Below are positions 1,701 to 15,276 of a DNA stretch of 15,276 nt, in pieces (positions within the stretch are counted from its first letter, which is position 1; each line of letters starts with the position of its first letter). Below the pieces are notes generated by a model. That model searched no databases. It was not told the origin of the DNA and saw only the letters and a program-made list of their open reading frames with translations. The stretch spans positions 1-15,276 of IMG/VR virus record IMGVR_UViG_2609459826_000005; one strand, given 5' to 3'. The DNA comes from a virus (taxonomy: Duplodnaviria > Heunggongvirae > Uroviricota > Caudoviricetes). The position numbers were made by a program, and so were the translations under genes.

Positions 1701-2444
1701 ATGGCTAATTGCCCTAGCTCTAACGAGCGCCTATTCGGTGGCGCGGTGGTGCTGGAAGTCGCCGACGGCTGCCCGGATGTCAAACCACTTGAATCAGAGT
1801 GGAAGGCGCTGGCGGCCGGTACGTCCAAAGGCTTCGACTTCAACCCGAACTCGGTAACCTCAGATGCTGATGACGGCGGCGGCTATGTCGAAACCATCAT
1901 CACCAACAGTGACTTCACCCTGAGCTTTGAAGGTGAGGTCCGCAAGAAGGATAAACTGGATCAGTACGGCGTCGGCAAGTTCATCAAGTATTTCGCTGAC
2001 GAGCTGAAAGCCAAACGCCAGCCCGGAATCTGGGTGCGAATGGACTACGGCCCGGTTGAATTCATCGGCTACATGAACATCAACGCGCTGAGTTCTGACG
2101 GCGGCACCAACGATATCGTCACGTTCTCTACCGAGTTCAAAGTGGGCGATGCCAGCACCATCGAAGTTAACGAAGTGACGGCAGTGGCGGTGACCGGCGT
2201 AACGGTGACCCCAGCTACCAGCACTGGCGCGGCAGGCGGTACCAGCACCTTTACGGTGAATATCGCCCCGACCGGCGCAACCAACAAAGACTTCACCGTA
2301 GCATCAACCGATCCAACCAAAGCCACTGCTACCGCCTCCGGTACCACCGTGACGGTGAACCGCGTCGCCGCCGGCAGCGCGCAGATCGTCATTAACACCG
2401 AAGACGGTAATTTTGTTGCAACCCATACCGTTACCGTCAGCTAA
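1701..2444 (+). CDS. major tail protein with C-terminal Ig-like (Big_2-type) domain
   Basis: 247 aa; AAAGAGGAAG RBS at 1685-1694. The C-terminal ~90 aa is Thr/Val/Ala-rich with alternating beta-strand pattern (VTGVTVTPATSTGAAGGTSTFTVNIAPTGATNKDFTVASTDPTKATATASGTTVTVNRVAAGSAQIVINT), typical of Ig-like domains appended to siphovirus major tail proteins (cf. lambda gpV C-terminus). Confidence 0.8.
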   Translation: MANCPSSNERLFGGAVVLEVADGCPDVKPLESEWKALAAGTSKGFDFNPNSVTSDADDGGGYVETIITNSDFTLSFEGEVRKKDKLDQYGVGKFIKYFADELKAKRQPGIWVRMDYGPVEFIGYMNINALSSDGGTNDIVTFSTEFKVGDASTIEVNEVTAVAVTGVTVTPATSTGAAGGTSTFTVNIAPTGATNKDFTVASTDPTKATATASGTTVTVNRVAAGSAQIVINTEDGNFVATHTVTVS

Positions 2445-2504: not shown

Positions 2505-3179
2505 ATGACAGTAGTAGCCATGAAAGAAATTGGCGAGATCGCCATTAGTGACAGCCGGGAAGGTGGTAAGGACTACTTACTGCGGCCTTCCTTCTCAGCG
2601 ATGATGAAGGTTGGTGAACCGGATGAGATCGTGAAGATGTACGCACTAATTCACGGTAGCGAGGTGCAGCAATTGATAGCCTCTTGTACTGCTGGCTTCG
2701 ACTCAATTCCTGAATGGATGGCTCCATCCTTCAATGTTGCAGCTGACAATCTGCTATTCACGTCAATGCTGGTATTGCAGGCCTGCTGTGATGATGATCT
2801 CGATGAGATAATTGGCGAGTGGGCTGATGAAGGCGGCAGAATCTCCTATCAGCCCGGCATGATGGCAAAAGATTTAATCATCATTTTCGCCCGCGAGCTG
2901 ATGCAGCACGGCATCGTAGGTAAAGCCAGTGTGCGACGCCTGCAGCGGCATGAGTCAGGCGAAACGACGAACGAGTTTAAGGCCTTCGACTACATCAGCG
3001 CGGCGCGTAGCCACTTCGGCATGAGCCGGGAAGAGGCTGCGGCGCTGACCATGACCGAGTTTCAGCTGATGCTGGCGCAGAAATACCCTGATCAGAAGGG
3101 TTTCACGCGGGATGAGTACGACGCGGTTGCGGATGACTTCCTGGCGAAACAGGCTGCGAGAAGGGCTAAGCAGAAGTAG
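2505..3179 (+). CDS. putative tail assembly chaperone (position-based)
   Basis: 224 aa acidic protein in the slot between major tail and tape measure genes, where gpG/GT-type chaperones are encoded. No slippery frameshift site recognised; the call is synteny-based only. Confidence 0.4.
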   Translation: MTVVAMKEIGEIAISDSREGGKDYLLRPSFSAMMKVGEPDEIVKMYALIHGSEVQQLIASCTAGFDSIPEWMAPSFNVAADNLLFTSMLVLQACCDDDLDEIIGEWADEGGRISYQPGMMAKDLIIIFARELMQHGIVGKASVRRLQRHESGETTNEFKAFDYISAARSHFGMSREEAAALTMTEFQLMLAQKYPDQKGFTRDEYDAVADDFLAKQAARRAKQK

Positions 3180-3195
3180 CCCACCCAAATAATCA

Positions 3196-3223
3196 AGCCT
3201 CGGCATTGTCCGGGGCTTTTTTG
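3196..3223 (+). terminator. rho-independent terminator after the chaperone gene
   Basis: AGCCTCGG / CCGGGGCT 8 bp stem (one G-U wobble) with CATTGT loop followed by TTTTTTGT, 17 nt after stop at 3179. Confidence 0.6.
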
Positions 3224-3267: not shown

Positions 3268-3341
3268 CCTAGAGCCTACAGTAAGCGAGCCTGAGAGTTG
3301 CCGTTATAGGTGGCGACCTCTCTAGGAGGCGGCTTCTCTGT

Positions 3342-3905
3342 GTGACAGGCTCTGCTTTCTATAGGCAAATCGCAATGAAATATCCAACCGTATCAGTAAG
3401 CGGCGTTTCCGTTCGCGTTGATGACGAAGGGCGCTATAACCTTAATGATCTTCATGCAGCCGCAGTGGCAAACGGAGAGGCAACAGAACAGCAGCGCCCA
3501 AGTCAGTTTTTGCGTAGTGCTCAAGTTAAGCGCTTCATAAAAGCACTAAAAGCCAAAGTGCAAAAAAGCACTCTGGAACAAATTCAACCACTTAATGTTA
3601 TTAAAGGTGGGGATGAACCAGGCGTTTGGGGTGTTGAACTGTTGGCGATCCGTTATGCCGCATGGATTAAGCCGGAATTTGAGATTGAAGTATATGAGGT
3701 GTTCCGAACGGTGGTTCGCCTCGGCATTAGTGCCATGTCTCGCCTGAACAAAATCGACCACATCATCAACACCGAATCGAAAGAGATCAGCAAGTGCGCC
3801 AGCCAGATGGCCCGGTGGGGTGTCGGTGGTCGTAAGCAGCTATTGCACGCAGCAAGAGATCGCGTCGCCGATGAAGTTCAGATGTACCTGCCAGGCATCG
3901 CGTGA
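3342..3905 (+). CDS. KilA-N domain protein
   Basis: GTG start 3342 with AGGAGG at 3325-3330 (alternative ATG at 3375). N-terminal region contains the hallmark KilA-N pattern (VSVRVDDEGRYNLNDLHAAA...RPSQFLR...IKGG...GVWGVELLAIRYAAWIKPEFEIEV). Confidence 0.8.
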   Translation: MTGSAFYRQIAMKYPTVSVSGVSVRVDDEGRYNLNDLHAAAVANGEATEQQRPSQFLRSAQVKRFIKALKAKVQKSTLEQIQPLNVIKGGDEPGVWGVELLAIRYAAWIKPEFEIEVYEVFRTVVRLGISAMSRLNKIDHIINTESKEISKCASQMARWGVGGRKQLLHAARDRVADEVQMYLPGIA

Positions 3906-3912
3906 AGGTGGC

Positions 3913-3935
3913 AAGGCCCACTCAGGTGGGCTTTA
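3913..3935 (+). terminator. hairpin terminator after KilA-N gene (weak T tract)
   Basis: AGGCCCAC-TCAG-GTGGGCTT hairpin (GCCCAC/GTGGGC perfect stem) followed by TTTAG; 8 nt after stop at 3905. Confidence 0.45.
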
Positions 3936-3960
3936 GATCTCTTATCTCGGGGAGAGGGCG

Positions 3961-4192: not shown

Positions 4193-4771
4193 ATGATTAA
4201 CGAATATGATTTCGTGACAGCGGCAGGTCATATAGCTAAACATGAAGCCGGTCACTGGCTTGCGGCGTTTAAATTAGGCTGGAACCCAAGAGGTATAGGC
4301 TTGAGAGTGCCGCCTCATGCTAAAGATCACATGGGTTATTCAGAAACAAGTCACAAAGTCGATTTAAGCAGCATTGAGGATGTCCGGGATTACGCAAGAG
4401 GCAGGGTAAAAATTCTCTACAGTGGCGTATATGCAGAGCACTTTGACGGAAAAGACTTTGATCACGAATCCATAATGCGTGATATGAAGCGTGGCGGCGG
4501 TGCTTATTCTGATTTCTGGAAAGCTGAAGAAATCTACTTCTTTTACTACAACTGCCTCGACACAAAGGGAGAGTGGGATGAAGAGTTTCAGCCTGTTATT
4601 TGCGACGTTCAGCTCATGATCGAAATGCATTATGACTTCATCACCTTGGTAGCCAAATTTGTTATGGCGAGGGCAAATTTTGTCGGTCAACGCATAGAGA
4701 TTTCATCCACCGACCTGATCAGGCTGTTCGAAAATAGCGCCATTAATCTACCGGATCACGACCCTGCCTAA
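4193..4771 (+). CDS. standalone FtsH-like (peptidase M41-type) zinc metallopeptidase domain protein
   Basis: 192 aa; HEAGH at residues 17-21 (AGHIAKHEAGHWLAAFKLGWNPRGIGLRV), followed by a PRG motif and LYSG...AE / GGGAYSD segments. This parallels the FtsH protease domain (HEAGHA...IIPRGRALG...LYGGRLAEE...GASND) as recalled from E. coli FtsH. No AAA+ ATPase or transmembrane part. AGGA 7 nt upstream of ATG. Confidence 0.65.
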   Translation: MINEYDFVTAAGHIAKHEAGHWLAAFKLGWNPRGIGLRVPPHAKDHMGYSETSHKVDLSSIEDVRDYARGRVKILYSGVYAEHFDGKDFDHESIMRDMKRGGGAYSDFWKAEEIYFFYYNCLDTKGEWDEEFQPVICDVQLMIEMHYDFITLVAKFVMARANFVGQRIEISSTDLIRLFENSAINLPDHDPA

Positions 4772-4883
4772 CTGCGGGTTTTTCCGGCGCTAGCCTCTTG
4801 AGATCAATAAATCAGCGTTTGCCGTTGCGCCTGTGCTATTCCTGGGTAGGATGTTTCCACTTTTACCAATGGGGAATAGGGAT

Positions 4884-5270
4884 ATGAAGCGTTTACTGAT
4901 CATGGCTATTGCTGGGCTATCACTAACCGGCTGCGGCAAACCTGCACCGACAAGAGATGAGGCCTTTCAAATGGCTAAGCAGGAAATGTCGATGGCTCTT
5001 TGTGGCGATAGGAGTGCAAGCTGTTTTATTGCTGAAGGAGGAAGCTCTAAAGTATCAGAGAAGAAAAATGACAATACCTATAACGCCTCAGCTACATTTA
5101 ACAGCCTAAAAGGGAAGGGCAAGGATTTGGAATATAGCGGCGGGGGCGTTTTTTTCGAAATAGATGACGAAACAAGGGCTGTATATGTCAAATCCATCTC
5201 AGCATGGTCTGAGGATGGAAAAAAGAGCATTGAGCTTTGTGGTTCGAACTATAAATTCTGTACTAAATGA
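4884..5270 (+). CDS. small lipoprotein (128 aa), candidate superinfection-exclusion moron
   Basis: Likely start ATG 4884 (in-frame upstream GTG/ATG at 4833/4851/4869 lack a signal peptide). N-terminus MKRLLIMAIAGLSLTGC has a basic n-region, hydrophobic core and lipobox L-T-G-C. Followed by a strong terminator. Confidence 0.7.
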   Translation: MKRLLIMAIAGLSLTGCGKPAPTRDEAFQMAKQEMSMALCGDRSASCFIAEGGSSKVSEKKNDNTYNASATFNSLKGKGKDLEYSGGGVFFEIDDETRAVYVKSISAWSEDGKKSIELCGSNYKFCTK

Positions 5271-5286
5271 AGCCCTAATAAACAGC

Positions 5287-5309
5287 AACCCGCCGAGGCG
5301 GGTTTTTTT
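5287..5309 (+). terminator. rho-independent terminator (CCCGC-CGAG-GCGGG + T7) abutting the tape measure gene
   Basis: 5 bp GC stem 5289-5293/5298-5302, tetraloop, seven T at 5303-5309. Confidence 0.7.
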
Positions 5310-5324
5310 ATGCCCGGAGAGAAC

Positions 5325-7727
5325 ATGGCCAGCGAGGAGCAGGTAGGTAATATTGTCTATCAGGTGCAGATGGATGTTGCCAATCTTATTGAGGCGCAGC
5401 GTAAAGTAAACGAACGCCTTGAGAAGATGAATAGTGGAGTATCAAAAGCTGCCAGCAAGTTTGATGAGCTTCAGACCAGTATAAGCAGAGTAGCTGGCGC
5501 GATCGCTGCTTCAATTGTCGTTGAATGGGGGAAGGCATTTCTTGTAGCCGCTGACAATATGAGCCAACTTAACGCTCGAATTGAAAGGCTAACTGGTAGT
5601 GCTTCTGTCGCATCTCAGACCATGCAAAGTCTGATGAATATAAGCTCAACAACAGGAGGATCTCTCCAGGATACAGCCAAGCTGTGGGAAACGTTAAGCA
5701 CTGCGTTGCGGAGCACTGGTGCCACTAATGGCCAAATATTGCAGCTTACCGATACCCTTCAAAAAATTGGTCGAATTGGAGGCACATCTGCCGAGGAAAT
5801 GGCTAATGCGCTGCGCCAATTCGGACAGTCTATTTCATCCGGCGTTGTTAGAGCAGAAGAATTTAACTCTATTCTTGAGCAAATGCCTGAGTTGGCAAGG
5901 CAGATGGCGGCAGGGCTTGGAATTGGTATTGGTGAATTGCGTCAGTTGATGCTGGATGGGAAACTTTCTGCTCAAGATGCACTCAATGCAATTCAGAAGC
6001 AAACCAGCATCGTGAATGCAGAGTTCGCAAAATTGCCCCGCACCTTATCTCAGGCCAATGCTGCTCTTACCAATTCGTTTCTGTCAATGGTTGACTCAAT
6101 TAACCAGACTACAGGCGCGAGCAGAACCATGGTGGCTGTAATTGACTCCATCACCACAGCCATAGACAGGCTGACTGGGAAAACAGCTTCAGCAGCAGCT
6201 CAAATTTCCGATCTCAATAGCACAGCAGAGATGTTCGAGCGAAGGGCGAGGACATGGTCTTGGCTGGGCCTGGATGGTTGGGAGGCTCAAAGCAAGGCGC
6301 TTGCAGGGCTAAGCAACAAAGCTGCAGCTCTCGTTGGGGATATTTCTGCCGTGACCCAAGCCTCTCAAGAGGCCTCTAACACAAAGCCAATAAACATTAA
6401 AACGACCGGAGACGATGCGGCTACATCGAAGCTGATAAAAAACTCAGAGCGCCGCTTAGCGCTCGCCAAGCTGGAAGGTGAAGCCAGAGCCAGACTGCAG
6501 GCCCAATATGATGCAGCAGACGCTGGCATCACCGATCAGAAACGCATCAAAGCTCTTCAGGATGAATACGCAGAAACCTATCGGGTTACTGAGGCGCGGA
6601 AAGAGAGCAACAAAGAGGGCAAGACCTCCGCCTCGCAGGCTGAATCCATTGCTCAGAAACTGGCGAGCCTCAAACAGCAATCCGAACTCGCTGCAGATTC
6701 GACCAGTGAGTTGAGTCGAGAGCAGGCCATGCTAAGGGCCGAGCAATCCCTCGGCAGCGCCGCCACCCAGTCCCAGATTAAAGAGGCAAGGGAATACGCA
6801 GCCAGGACGTGGGACGTTGCTAATGCCCTGAAAATGCGTCAGCAGGCGGAGCAGGCCTCCCGGTTTATAAATCAGGAAGTGTCAGCTGCGAAGGTTCAAC
6901 GCGATCCTTACACAGGTGAAGCGCAGGACCCAGCCGCGCAGGTCAACGAGGAAGAGCAGCGTAAACTCGAGGCCCTGGCTAAATACCAGGAACTGGGCGT
7001 AATCAACGCGCAGCAGTTCGAAGACGGAAAGACGGCCATCGCAAGGCAGGCATCGAACGATCGCATCAGTATTGCCCAGCAGGAGGCTAAGCGTCAGGTT
7101 GACGTGATGAACATGCTGCTTGGCGGGATCGGTGATGGTTTCTCAGGCCTGGCTGAAATCGTGTCTAAAAGCGCTGGCGAAAGCAATGCCGCTTACAAGA
7201 CACTGTTCGCTATCAGTAAAGCCTTTGCGGTTGCTCAGTCCACTCTGAACCTTCAGCTTGCACTCTCAAACGCCATGGCCTCGGGTCCATTCCCCTGGAA
7301 CATGGCAGCAATGGCGCAGGTTGCTGCAGCTGGCGGCCAGGTGATCTCATCTATCGGCGCAATGTCATATGGTGGCGGGCGCGAACACGGCGGCCCGGTA
7401 TCTGCCAGCTCCATGTACCGTGTGGGCGAGGGCGGTAAACCTGAGATTTTCAAAGCCAGCAATGGCAGCCAGTACATGATCCCCGGCGATAACGGTCGCG
7501 TCATCAGTAACCGGGATATTGGCGGGGGTGGCGGGGCGTTCAATTACAGCCCGGTCATTCAGGTCAACGGTGATCCGACAGAGCAGACGCTTGCCATGCT
7601 TGAAGCGGCGGTTAAGCGCGGTGCGCAGCAAGGCTATGCCATGGCCGTCAGCGATGTCGCCAGCGGCAAAGGTAAGCTTTCCAACGCGCTGACCAACAAC
7701 TTCAACACCAGTCAACGCCTCACATAA
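5325..7727 (+). CDS. tail tape measure protein
   Basis: Long ORF (800 aa from ATG 5325; in-frame ATG also at 5310 but it abuts the terminator T-run, whereas CCCGGAG at 5313-5319 is a well-spaced RBS for 5325). Ala/Gln/Glu-rich coiled-coil-like middle, Gly-rich C-terminus, and position between chaperone and minor tail genes. Confidence 0.9.
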   Translation: MASEEQVGNIVYQVQMDVANLIEAQRKVNERLEKMNSGVSKAASKFDELQTSISRVAGAIAASIVVEWGKAFLVAADNMSQLNARIERLTGSASVASQTMQSLMNISSTTGGSLQDTAKLWETLSTALRSTGATNGQILQLTDTLQKIGRIGGTSAEEMANALRQFGQSISSGVVRAEEFNSILEQMPELARQMAAGLGIGIGELRQLMLDGKLSAQDALNAIQKQTSIVNAEFAKLPRTLSQANAALTNSFLSMVDSINQTTGASRTMVAVIDSITTAIDRLTGKTASAAAQISDLNSTAEMFERRARTWSWLGLDGWEAQSKALAGLSNKAAALVGDISAVTQASQEASNTKPINIKTTGDDAATSKLIKNSERRLALAKLEGEARARLQAQYDAADAGITDQKRIKALQDEYAETYRVTEARKESNKEGKTSASQAESIAQKLASLKQQSELAADSTSELSREQAMLRAEQSLGSAATQSQIKEAREYAARTWDVANALKMRQQAEQASRFINQEVSAAKVQRDPYTGEAQDPAAQVNEEEQRKLEALAKYQELGVINAQQFEDGKTAIARQASNDRISIAQQEAKRQVDVMNMLLGGIGDGFSGLAEIVSKSAGESNAAYKTLFAISKAFAVAQSTLNLQLALSNAMASGPFPWNMAAMAQVAAAGGQVISSIGAMSYGGGREHGGPVSASSMYRVGEGGKPEIFKASNGSQYMIPGDNGRVISNRDIGGGGGAFNYSPVIQVNGDPTEQTLAMLEAAVKRGAQQGYAMAVSDVASGKGKLSNALTNNFNTSQRLT

Positions 7728-8701: not shown

Positions 8702-9082
8702 ATGTTCAATCCAGATAAATACCGTTCTGTCGAGTGGCAGAAGGGCGGGCGCGCTTACCCCGCGCTTGACTGCTTTGGCATCGTCAACGAAATCAGGCGC
8801 GATCTGGGTCTGGATCCGTGGCCGGATTTCGCCGGAGTCACGAAGGATGATAACGGCCTAGATCGGGAAGCGCGCGGGCTGATTGCTGGCCTGACTCGAT
8901 GTGAACCGACCCCGGGCGCAGGTATCGCCTGTTATTCCGGCTCTGTTGTTACACACGTTGCCATCGTTGTCGAGATTGACGGCCAACTGCGCGCTGCGGA
9001 GTGCAATCCCCGCACTAACGTAACCTTTCTGCCGCTGGCGCGGTTTGCGCGCCGCTTTGTTCGCGTGGAGTATTACCAGTGA
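8702..9082 (+). CDS. NlpC/P60-family tail protein (gpK-like)
   Basis: 126 aa with putative catalytic Cys in ALDCFGIV and downstream His in VVTHVAIVVE, the Cys-His arrangement of NlpC/P60 peptidases; position equivalent to lambda K. Confidence 0.65.
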   Translation: MFNPDKYRSVEWQKGGRAYPALDCFGIVNEIRRDLGLDPWPDFAGVTKDDNGLDREARGLIAGLTRCEPTPGAGIACYSGSVVTHVAIVVEIDGQLRAAECNPRTNVTFLPLARFARRFVRVEYYQ

Positions 9083-14701: not shown

Positions 14702-14941
14702 GTGCCCCGCAAATCAGACATTCACAGCGCATTTGTCGCTGCAATACAGCTAAATCCTAAGGGATACCAGTGTTTACGCACGGACGACTTTATTCGAGAA
14801 CTTGCCAAGGTGCACTGGCATTTCAGTCAGGAAGATGCCAATGACTGGATAGAGCGCTACCAGGAGTTCTTCGTCGATAAGACGCCTGATAACAGCCAGA
14901 ACAGGTTGTGGATCCTGCGCAACATGGGGAGGGTGCTCTGA
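14702..14941 (+). CDS. hypothetical protein (79 aa), first gene of a putative LexA-regulated operon
   Basis: GTG 14702 lies 9 nt after AAGGAG (the listed start at 14693 has zero spacing to the RBS). Stop TGA overlaps the ATG of the next gene (TGATG). No recognised motif. Confidence 0.5.
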   Translation: MPRKSDIHSAFVAAIQLNPKGYQCLRTDDFIRELAKVHWHFSQEDANDWIERYQEFFVDKTPDNSQNRLWILRNMGRVL

Positions 14942-15276
14942 TGGGGTTTCCTTCACCGGCGGGCGACTACGTAGAGCAGCGGTTAACACCGGAGCGTATC
15001 TGCGGGATCGGCATGGACAGCCGCATCCTCGAAACATCATCCGGCTTTGCCGTTATCGAGCCGTGCACCAGGCTGGTACAGAATCAGGTTCTGCTGATTT
15101 TGTCTGGCGGCCGGACTCAGTTTGCCCGGGTAATGGGTAGGGCGCTGATTTGTGATGATGGCGAAGCGATCGAAGGTGATGCAGCTGAAGAGGCTGAGGT
15201 TATGAGGCGGGTGACGCACTTTATCAACAGCACTGATGCTGCGATATCTCTTGAGGCGGCATTGGCGCAGTTTTGA
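14941..15276 (+). CDS. UmuD-like (LexA/S24 superfamily-related) protein, divergent
   Basis: 111 aa starting MGFPSPAGDYVEQRL, matching the N-terminal arm motif of UmuD/MucA (GFPSPAADYVEQRIDL / GFPSPAQGYEKQEL as recalled). The canonical GDSM serine and the catalytic lysine context are not evident. Stop codon is the last three bases of the window. Confidence 0.5.
   Translation: MGFPSPAGDYVEQRLTPERICGIGMDSRILETSSGFAVIEPCTRLVQNQVLLILSGGRTQFARVMGRALICDDGEAIEGDAAEEAEVMRRVTHFINSTDAAISLEAALAQF

Follow-up and report, generated by a model that had tools for sequence, protein, structure and literature searches.

A lipoprotein moron at the tape-measure junction of a temperate Escherichia coli siphophage, a candidate factor for superinfection exclusion

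A gene for a small lipoprotein was identified at positions 4884 to 5270 of a 15,276-nucleotide (nt) stretch of phage DNA (IMG/VR record IMGVR_UViG_2609459826_000005), the whole of which is termed the window here and which matches positions 1-15272 of contig JNPJ01000081.1 in the Escherichia coli assembly GCA_000703665.1. This gene is a moron, an optional and self-contained transcription unit situated at the junction between a DUF6246 gene and the tape-measure protein (TMP) gene of a temperate E. coli siphophage. It is classed as a moron because it is absent from relatives, has its own terminator, deviates in GC content and is preceded by a conserved leader. We propose that the product is an envelope factor that would be expressed from the prophage for superinfection exclusion, a reading that could as readily be wrong as right and for which any target is a candidate only.

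Envelope proteins of prophages decide whether a phage can enter a lysogen, and this bears on host range in phage therapy and on gene flow among the Enterobacteriaceae. Few such proteins have been characterized, namely Cor, Llp, gp15, SieA and Lpp021/010. Prophage morons encoding envelope proteins were known already; the new elements are the present family and a TMP-proximal cassette site with a shared leader. This slot is a predictable place for further exported accessory proteins, several of them with the shared leader, and its survey yields a list of candidates for new exclusion mechanisms together with a compact promoter-like element for studies of regulation.

A narrow and strongly conserved lipoprotein family

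The family was analyzed in 23 loci, 22 of which are in tail clusters and one of which (L018) is in an immunity region. The precursor encoded by the window begins with MKRLLIMAIAGLSLTGC, followed by the mature part (GKPAPT...), and is identical to WP_032180647.1, annotated as a 'hypothetical protein'. A preliminary description of the window had claimed a signal peptide II with a lipobox for this reading frame, and the claim was borne out by PROSITE rule PS51257, which looks for a positive n-region, an uncharged h-region, a lipobox of the form [LVI][ASTVI][GAS]C and a Cys at position 15 to 35. The precursor has K2 and R3, an uncharged h-region and the lipobox L14-T15-G16-C17. The rule by itself is permissive, with six matches among 456 start/open reading frame (ORF) combinations in the window, three of which are the lipoprotein ORF, and a mean of 1.56 in shuffled sequences; the lipoprotein call hence rests on conservation. 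All 23 homologues passed the rule despite divergent signal-peptide sequences, and L14, G16 and C17 are invariant in the family alignment (A1). The residue at position +2 is G, Y or S in every member and never Asp, which is the signal for inner-membrane retention in lipoproteins of Enterobacteriaceae. As the +2 residue in the window is Gly, sorting of the lipoprotein to the outer membrane by the Lol system is predicted.

Four Cys residues of the mature part are kept in all 23 members, being invariant or nearly so, and form two CX6C pairs (C40/C47 and C119/C126). The ratio of nonsynonymous to synonymous substitution rates (dN/dS) was 0.03-0.08, with dS saturated, indicating a real gene under purifying selection. 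The predicted domain consists of one helix (residues 24-40) set against an antiparallel sheet. Model confidence (predicted local distance difference test, pLDDT) was below 50 at residues 1-3 and 6-14, which fits a cleaved peptide, and the sole hydrophobic segment of the protein is the predicted cleaved signal peptide, there being no C-terminal transmembrane (TM) segment. Foldseek returned low structural scores for a generic fold and no significant match; the Haemophilus adhesin protein E was among the weak matches, and a cystatin-like fold is a candidate only.

The protein matched phrog_20460 ('unknown function') over its full length. No match was found among Pfam, NCBIfam, PADLOC or PDB sequences, and one genome per species, scanned with the family alignment, gave no confirmed relative. 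An exhaustive profile hidden Markov model (HMM) search of 1.84 billion representative proteins returned only four true relatives and no distant characterized one; P0019 from this search was rejected as a spurious hit to a repeat protein. Homologues occurred only in temperate phages and prophages of enterobacteria (Salmonella, Klebsiella, Enterobacter, Leclercia, Hafnia and E. coli), including the Salmonella phages Oslo (gp20), S107, S135 and S137. The gene is rare in E. coli, being present in 2 of 5426 complete genomes. The Salmonella branch is common, with three listed cluster members that are each found on 809 to at least 1000 contigs. This is a narrow lipoprotein family, uncharacterized so far.

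The gene occupies a cassette slot next to the tape-measure gene

The preliminary description had placed a small lipoprotein inside the tail gene cluster, and this position, between the gene for a protein with an HExxH motif and TMP, was upheld. In 22 of the 23 loci the lipoprotein gene lies 40-55 nt 5′ of TMP. It is the sole gene between DUF6246 and TMP in ten of these 22 loci, while the remainder, including the window, have extra accessory genes to its left (KilA-N, Ant/Arc, Rha or the HExxH protein). Phage CobraSix has major-tail and DUF6246 genes with ∼80% DNA identity to those of the window, but its TMP gene follows DUF6246 after 12 nt and there is no lipoprotein gene. The GC content of the coding sequence (CDS) is 0.44 (0.40-0.48 in the family), versus ∼0.55-0.58 in the tail genes to its left and right; GC is low in the 5′ part of TMP as well.

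These observations bear on a possible role in the lytic cycle, whether as an o-spanin or u-spanin, as the 'T' half of a G/GT tail chaperone or as a virion or assembly component. Such a role would suit a gene located in the late tail operon, at the place of the T frame in lambda-like phages, and spanins are likewise outer-membrane lipoproteins. The gene, however, has a Shine-Dalgarno (SD) sequence, an ATG and an export signal of its own and is followed by a terminator. It is dispensable, since close relatives that share the tail genes lack it or have another gene in its place, and one homologue lies next to cI. The pattern of presence and absence largely refutes a lytic-cycle role, which we regard as very improbable. 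A spanin was rejected, there being no lysis neighbors and no C-terminal TM segment, and a lysis role was excluded because phage Oslo, which carries the homologue gp20, has a separate embedded Rz/Rz1-type spanin pair of its own (PMC6139136). The 'T' frame of a G/GT chaperone was rejected on the basis of the gene having its own start, its own signal peptide and a dispensable nature.

The slot was surveyed in the 80 viral contigs whose TMP N terminus was closest to that of the window, 78 of which were evaluable; the counts in Table 1 are of contigs and not of independent events. Six cargo types were found in 58 occupied slots, and a lipobox, a Sec signal peptide or a TM helix was present in every representative examined. 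Each cargo type had a hairpin, a T-run and ATGCCCGGAGA behind it. As judged from these signals, the slot holds at least six other exported proteins, with functions unassigned. The phrog_2320 lipoprotein gave 94% in hhalign against the present family over 70 columns, a stretch that includes the signal peptide, hinting that it alone among the cargo may be distantly related to this family. Cargo type correlated with TMP clade, but with only 40-60 nt between the genes this correlation carries no information.

Table 1. Contents of the slot between DUF6246 and TMP in 78 evaluable viral contigs
Slot content	Contigs	Remarks
Present lipoprotein	6/78	
Different lipoprotein, phrog_2320	34/78	GTG start verified in two representatives
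∼120-aa protein with Sec signal peptide	10/78	
Other Sec-signal protein	2/78	
VasI-like secreted protein (phrog_1848)	1/78	Also in L030
Protein with N-terminal TM helix	5/78	
Terminator only	4/78	After a longer DUF6246-like gene
Empty, no terminator	16/78	DUF6246-TMP gap of 41 nt

The slot cargo was located at ∼3300-3960 in each of the loci L032-L110, at 699-1196 in L030, 1-144 in L031, 3599-4654 in L112 and 3584-4649 in L114. Several slot proteins shared a pattern of an N-terminal helix, 'VCGxxxG' and a C-terminal Cys.

Leader, terminator and a homologue beside a repressor gene

The 86-nt leader of the gene (coordinates of this and other features in Table 2) was 91-95% identical between loci with a CDS identity of 72-79% and saturated dS. 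A -10 hexamer of the form TAnnnT ends 28-31 nt 5′ of the ATG in 20 of the 22 tail-cluster loci, with the variants TAGGAT, TACGAT, TAGAAT, TAAAAT, TAATAT and TACTCT, and an extended -10 (TGn) was found in all of those 20 loci outside the window's own group. As an RNA element the leader had no Rfam match and an ordinary fold energy (z 0.78). We infer a promoter region under constraint, which may include an A/T-rich upstream element.

The leader segment at 4783-4889 of the window precedes unrelated cargo, with 93-97% identity, in three E. coli chromosomes, in each of which a lipoprotein gene again directly precedes TMP. A non-coding leader of 86-107 nt, conserved (91-97%) well above the level of the genes behind it, was seen before unrelated cargo in L030 (615-698), L064, L112 (3484-3598) and L114 (3469-3583).

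The strong terminator that had been noted behind the gene was confirmed. Five of the 7 bp in its stem are GC, it has a run of seven T residues and a folding energy of -12.1 kcal/mol, and it is kept in 23/23 family loci; the stems of L019 and L020 differ in sequence yet pair. The terminator is directly followed by the same ATGCCCGGAGA element, which carries the SD sequence of TMP.

The single homologue outside a tail cluster (within the region 7241-8354 of L018) is 62% identical, with the lipobox IALAGC, and lies on the same strand as, and 13 nt 3′ of, a gene for a cI-type repressor (helix-turn-helix [HTH] domain and S24 peptidase). Upstream of the repressor, the other strand carries genes for Cro-, cII- and O-like proteins and a DnaB-type helicase. 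The same terminator is retained 3′ of this homologue. A site next to the cI repressor gene is classic for exclusion genes expressed from the prophage. The same cargo is used at two locations, both presumably prophage-expressed, namely the tail junction and the immunity region of L018, to which the homologue has moved.

Comparison with characterized systems

The closest likeness in placement was to gp15 of phage HK97, which lies between the tail chaperone and TMP genes and, when expressed from the prophage, stops genome injection while leaving the receptor unblocked (PMC3594210); escape from gp15 maps to the tail tube and TMP genes (PMC10883804). Both phages are temperate E. coli siphophages, both genes occupy the chaperone-TMP junction, and in both there is a short leader, a small ORF for an envelope-targeted protein, a GC-rich hairpin with a T-run and, right behind it, the ATG...ATG of TMP; in the HK97 record, gp15 is followed by a hairpin with T8 and then by ATGGGTGAAAATATG of TMP. 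The proteins differ, gp15 being a protein of 62 aa in the inner membrane with a single TM helix and the present protein a predicted outer-membrane lipoprotein of 128 aa, and hhalign gave a probability of 0.07% against the present family, i.e., no relation. Furthermore, the function of gp15 has been demonstrated, whereas that of the present protein is a proposal.

The preliminary description had compared the gene with cor and llp, assigning it the same placement and the same size class. Neither assignment held. Cor (HK022, phi80, N15 and T1) shares a lipoprotein precursor whose signal peptide (MKRLIICIAGALMLSGC) is very much alike, conserved Cys residues in the mature part and moron status in a tail region, but the HK022 precursor is of 77 aa and its gene is downstream of J, whereas the present gene is upstream of TMP, in the slot of HK97 gp15. 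The hhalign alignment with Cor was limited to residues 1-20, i.e., to the signal peptide. The target of Cor is FhuA, while that of the present protein is a candidate only. Llp of T5 is a small phage lipoprotein that acts at the outer membrane from its periplasmic side (PMC9586334); its precursor is again of 77 aa, its gene lies beside, and is transcribed divergently from, the receptor-binding gene, and T5 is a virulent phage. The hhalign probability for Llp was 10%, for the signal peptide only. Membership in the Cor, Llp or gp15 families was rejected on the basis of these hhalign results. What stands of the earlier interpretation is the kind of element, a phage lipoprotein encoded by an accessory gene of Cor's class; family membership and placement do not.

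Lpp021 and Lpp010 of the mEpimmI coliphages are tested exclusion lipoproteins, and exclusion follows the receptor type, Lpp021 acting against users of OmpA and Lpp010 against users of LamB (PMC11893012). They too are encoded in the structural cluster of temperate E. coli siphophages with the order major tail, hypothetical, TMP (PMC11893012), but by gene numbering they lie beyond J (J is gp79 and the tested lipoprotein gp81) and not at the TMP junction. A tblastn search with the window protein gave no match to mEp021. Ltp of the Streptococcus phage TP-J34 is a prophage lipoprotein that blocks DNA injection and has TMP as its genetic target (cited in PMC10883804). Like the L018 homologue, it is encoded in a lysogeny module, but its host is Gram positive, it has an unrelated fold, and the searches showed no similarity to the present family. 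Bor of lambda is also a moron-encoded outer-membrane lipoprotein expressed from the prophage (PMC3594210); its role is in serum resistance and is not phage related, and the present protein had no Bor-family match in Pfam.

Proposed function and alternatives

Expression in the lysogen is proposed because the L018 homologue is 3′ of cI and the family is confined to temperate phages and prophages, and an envelope role for the slot is proposed because all examined cargo representatives carry export or membrane signals. In the lysogen, transcription would start from the gene's own leader and stop at its own terminator while the flanking tail genes are silent. The precursor would be exported, and Lgt/Lsp processing would lipidate it at Cys17 and cleave it by signal peptidase II. 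With Gly at +2, the Lol system would then deliver it to the inner leaflet of the outer membrane. A 111-residue alpha+beta domain, presumably stabilized by disulfides, would thus be held in the periplasm, tethered by a short Pro-rich segment. Its most likely role would be superinfection exclusion, with genome entry of incoming phages stopped at the envelope. The choice of target is split about evenly between a receptor and a conduit used after adsorption. We lean slightly toward the latter, in which the protein would act, as has been proposed for HK97 gp15 and Ltp, on the tail-tip/tape-measure conduit that crosses the periplasm; alternatively, one particular receptor could be jammed.

Several observations weigh against the proposed reading as a whole. 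Recombination between conserved flanking sequences would be enough to account for the linkage to TMP, and the slot position is, therefore, of little mechanistic weight. The promoter score of the leader as a single sequence was not above that of shuffles (95/300), and the leader was not called in a scan with a promoter tool; as single-sequence scoring was not significant, the claim of a promoter rests on conservation. No homology to any characterized exclusion protein was found. Strong purifying selection without obvious hypervariable regions is unlike, and would not have been predicted from, a direct arms race with phage proteins. Finally, the characterized exclusion lipoproteins of the Gram-negative outer membrane all act on receptors and not on the injection conduit (Llp on FhuA, as seen in the structure of the pair, PMC9586334; Cor; Lpp021 and Lpp010, PMC11893012).

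This last point favors a special case of exclusion in which the lipoprotein inactivates the receptor of its own phage from the periplasmic face, as Llp and Cor do for FhuA. The predicted site in the inner leaflet of the outer membrane would be suitable, a small domain with conserved Cys pairs recalls Cor and Llp, and purifying selection fits a conserved host target. Homology to Cor and Llp, however, stops at the signal peptide, the mature part of the present protein has nearly double their length, and the gene is not adjacent to J or to a receptor-binding gene. Nor does the family follow one tail tip: it was found with three tail-tip/J modules that are unrelated to one another, family members of 66% identity occurring beside non-homologous J proteins, and two prophages (L030 and L031) that have the tail-tip gene order and sizes of the window carry different slot cargo. 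One homologue, moreover, is in the immunity region of L018. A block of the phage's own receptor is somewhat weakened by these data and not specifically supported, and we consider it unlikely.

Lysogenic conversion without a role in phage entry is likewise an unlikely alternative. The protein would then improve host fitness, for example by serum or complement resistance, as does lambda Bor, by adhesion, or by inhibiting, through a cystatin-like domain, a hydrolase that is periplasmic or incoming. The moron architecture and lysogen-type expression would fit this alternative no less well, and the weak match to the Haemophilus adhesin, the very wide distribution of the Salmonella branch and the strong purifying selection speak for it. 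Set against it are the low scores and generic fold in the structural search, with nothing significant in Foldseek, and the lack of a match to Bor or any other Pfam family. In addition, the only characterized occupant of the slot (that of HK97) is an exclusion protein, and turnover of unrelated exported proteins in a cassette is more typical of loci of phage-phage conflict.

A bolder and doubtful extension of exclusion would see the DUF6246/TMP junction of this large group of enterobacterial siphoprophages as a dedicated cassette site whose occupants are periplasmic anti-entry factors acting on the TMP/tail-tip conduit of incoming siphophages. The occupants found comprise at least two families of lipoproteins together with three Sec-secreted proteins and several bitopic membrane proteins, and the leader on one side and the terminator/TMP-start flank on the other might let recombination exchange unrelated exported proteins. 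The cystatin-like lipoprotein could, under such a scheme, inhibit a papain-fold (NlpC/P60/CHAP) peptidase of the tail tip. If true, exclusion would here work by a novel mechanism, and the slot would supply many candidate exclusion proteins.

Neighboring genes and other features of the window

The tail cluster of the window has genes for the tail terminator, a major tail protein with an Ig domain, DUF6246, the KilA-N protein, the HExxH protein, the lipoprotein and TMP, in that order. Downstream of TMP there are three genes for small tail-tip proteins, among them DUF1833 and a CHAP-like peptidase (8702-9082), followed by those for a TipJ-type protein of 1028 aa and a tail fiber.

Table 2. Coordinates of features in the window
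Feature	Position	Strand	Remarks
Major tail protein, Ig domain	1701-2444		
DUF6246 gene, 224 aa, tail-chaperone position	2505-3179	+	Left border of insertion hot spot
KilA-N domain protein	3342-3905	+	phrog_129 'transcriptional regulator'; inserted between DUF6246 and other accessory genes
HExxH protein, 192 aa, HEAGH zinc-protease-like motif	4193-4771	+	phrog_36675
Terminator-like hairpin and T-run ending the HExxH gene	4763-4784	+	Stem 4763-4778, then TTTTT; left boundary of lipoprotein cassette
Conserved leader, 86 nt	4798-4883	+	Proposed prophage-active promoter and 5′ untranslated region
A/T-rich block TTGAGATCAATAAATCAG	4798-4815	+	Within leader
-35-like TTGCGC	4825-4830	+	16-nt spacer to -10
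-10-like TAGGAT	4847-4852	+	Within leader
Purine-rich SD GGGGAA	4871-4876	+	Within leader
Lipoprotein CDS	4884-5270	+	ATG 4884, TGA 5268-5270; precursor 128 aa, mature part 111 aa
Predicted type II signal peptide, residues 1-16	4884-4931	+	MKRLLIMAIAGLSLTG
Cys17 codon, predicted lipid-modified first mature residue	4932-4934	+	+2 residue is Gly
Intrinsic terminator	5287-5309	+	Stem AACCCGC/GCGGGTT 5287-5293/5298-5304, loop CGAG, T-run 5303-5309
Junction motif ATGCCCGGAGAGAACATG	5310-5327	+	SD GGAG 5316-5319, ATG 5325, 15 nt past T-run; conserved across loci
Tape-measure gene, TMP_3 domain	5325-7727	+	Constant right-hand neighbor of cassette

A mechanically called TMP ORF starts at ATG 5310, within the tail of the terminator, while the gene call of the source record starts at ATG 5325. 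The latter is probably the true start, given the conserved GGAG and the source gene call.

No G/GT-type frameshift partner was evident for the DUF6246 gene. The interval between DUF6246 and TMP is a multi-gene variable region, as its contents (KilA-N, Arc/Ant and Rha) differ among the window, Oslo and S107: the region corresponding to that of the window contains KilA-N and an Arc/Ant immI-like module in Oslo and Rha proteins in S107. The HExxH protein had no match in Pfam or NCBIfam; in both the window and L114 its gene immediately precedes the cassette leader, and a relative with 53% identity was present in L003. A sub-threshold match to the Rfam isrJ Hfq-binding small RNA (3149-3219, plus strand; 25 bits versus a gathering threshold of 37, E value of 0.11) overlaps the 3′ end of DUF6246 and is probably due to chance.

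At the right end of the prophage (14908-15276, plus strand), a weak N-terminal match to HumD/UmuD-type proteins with a GFPSPAGDY motif was detected; the observation takes in L025 (11428-12938) besides the window. Phage Oslo has genes for a UmuD-like protein and UmuC at the equivalent position.

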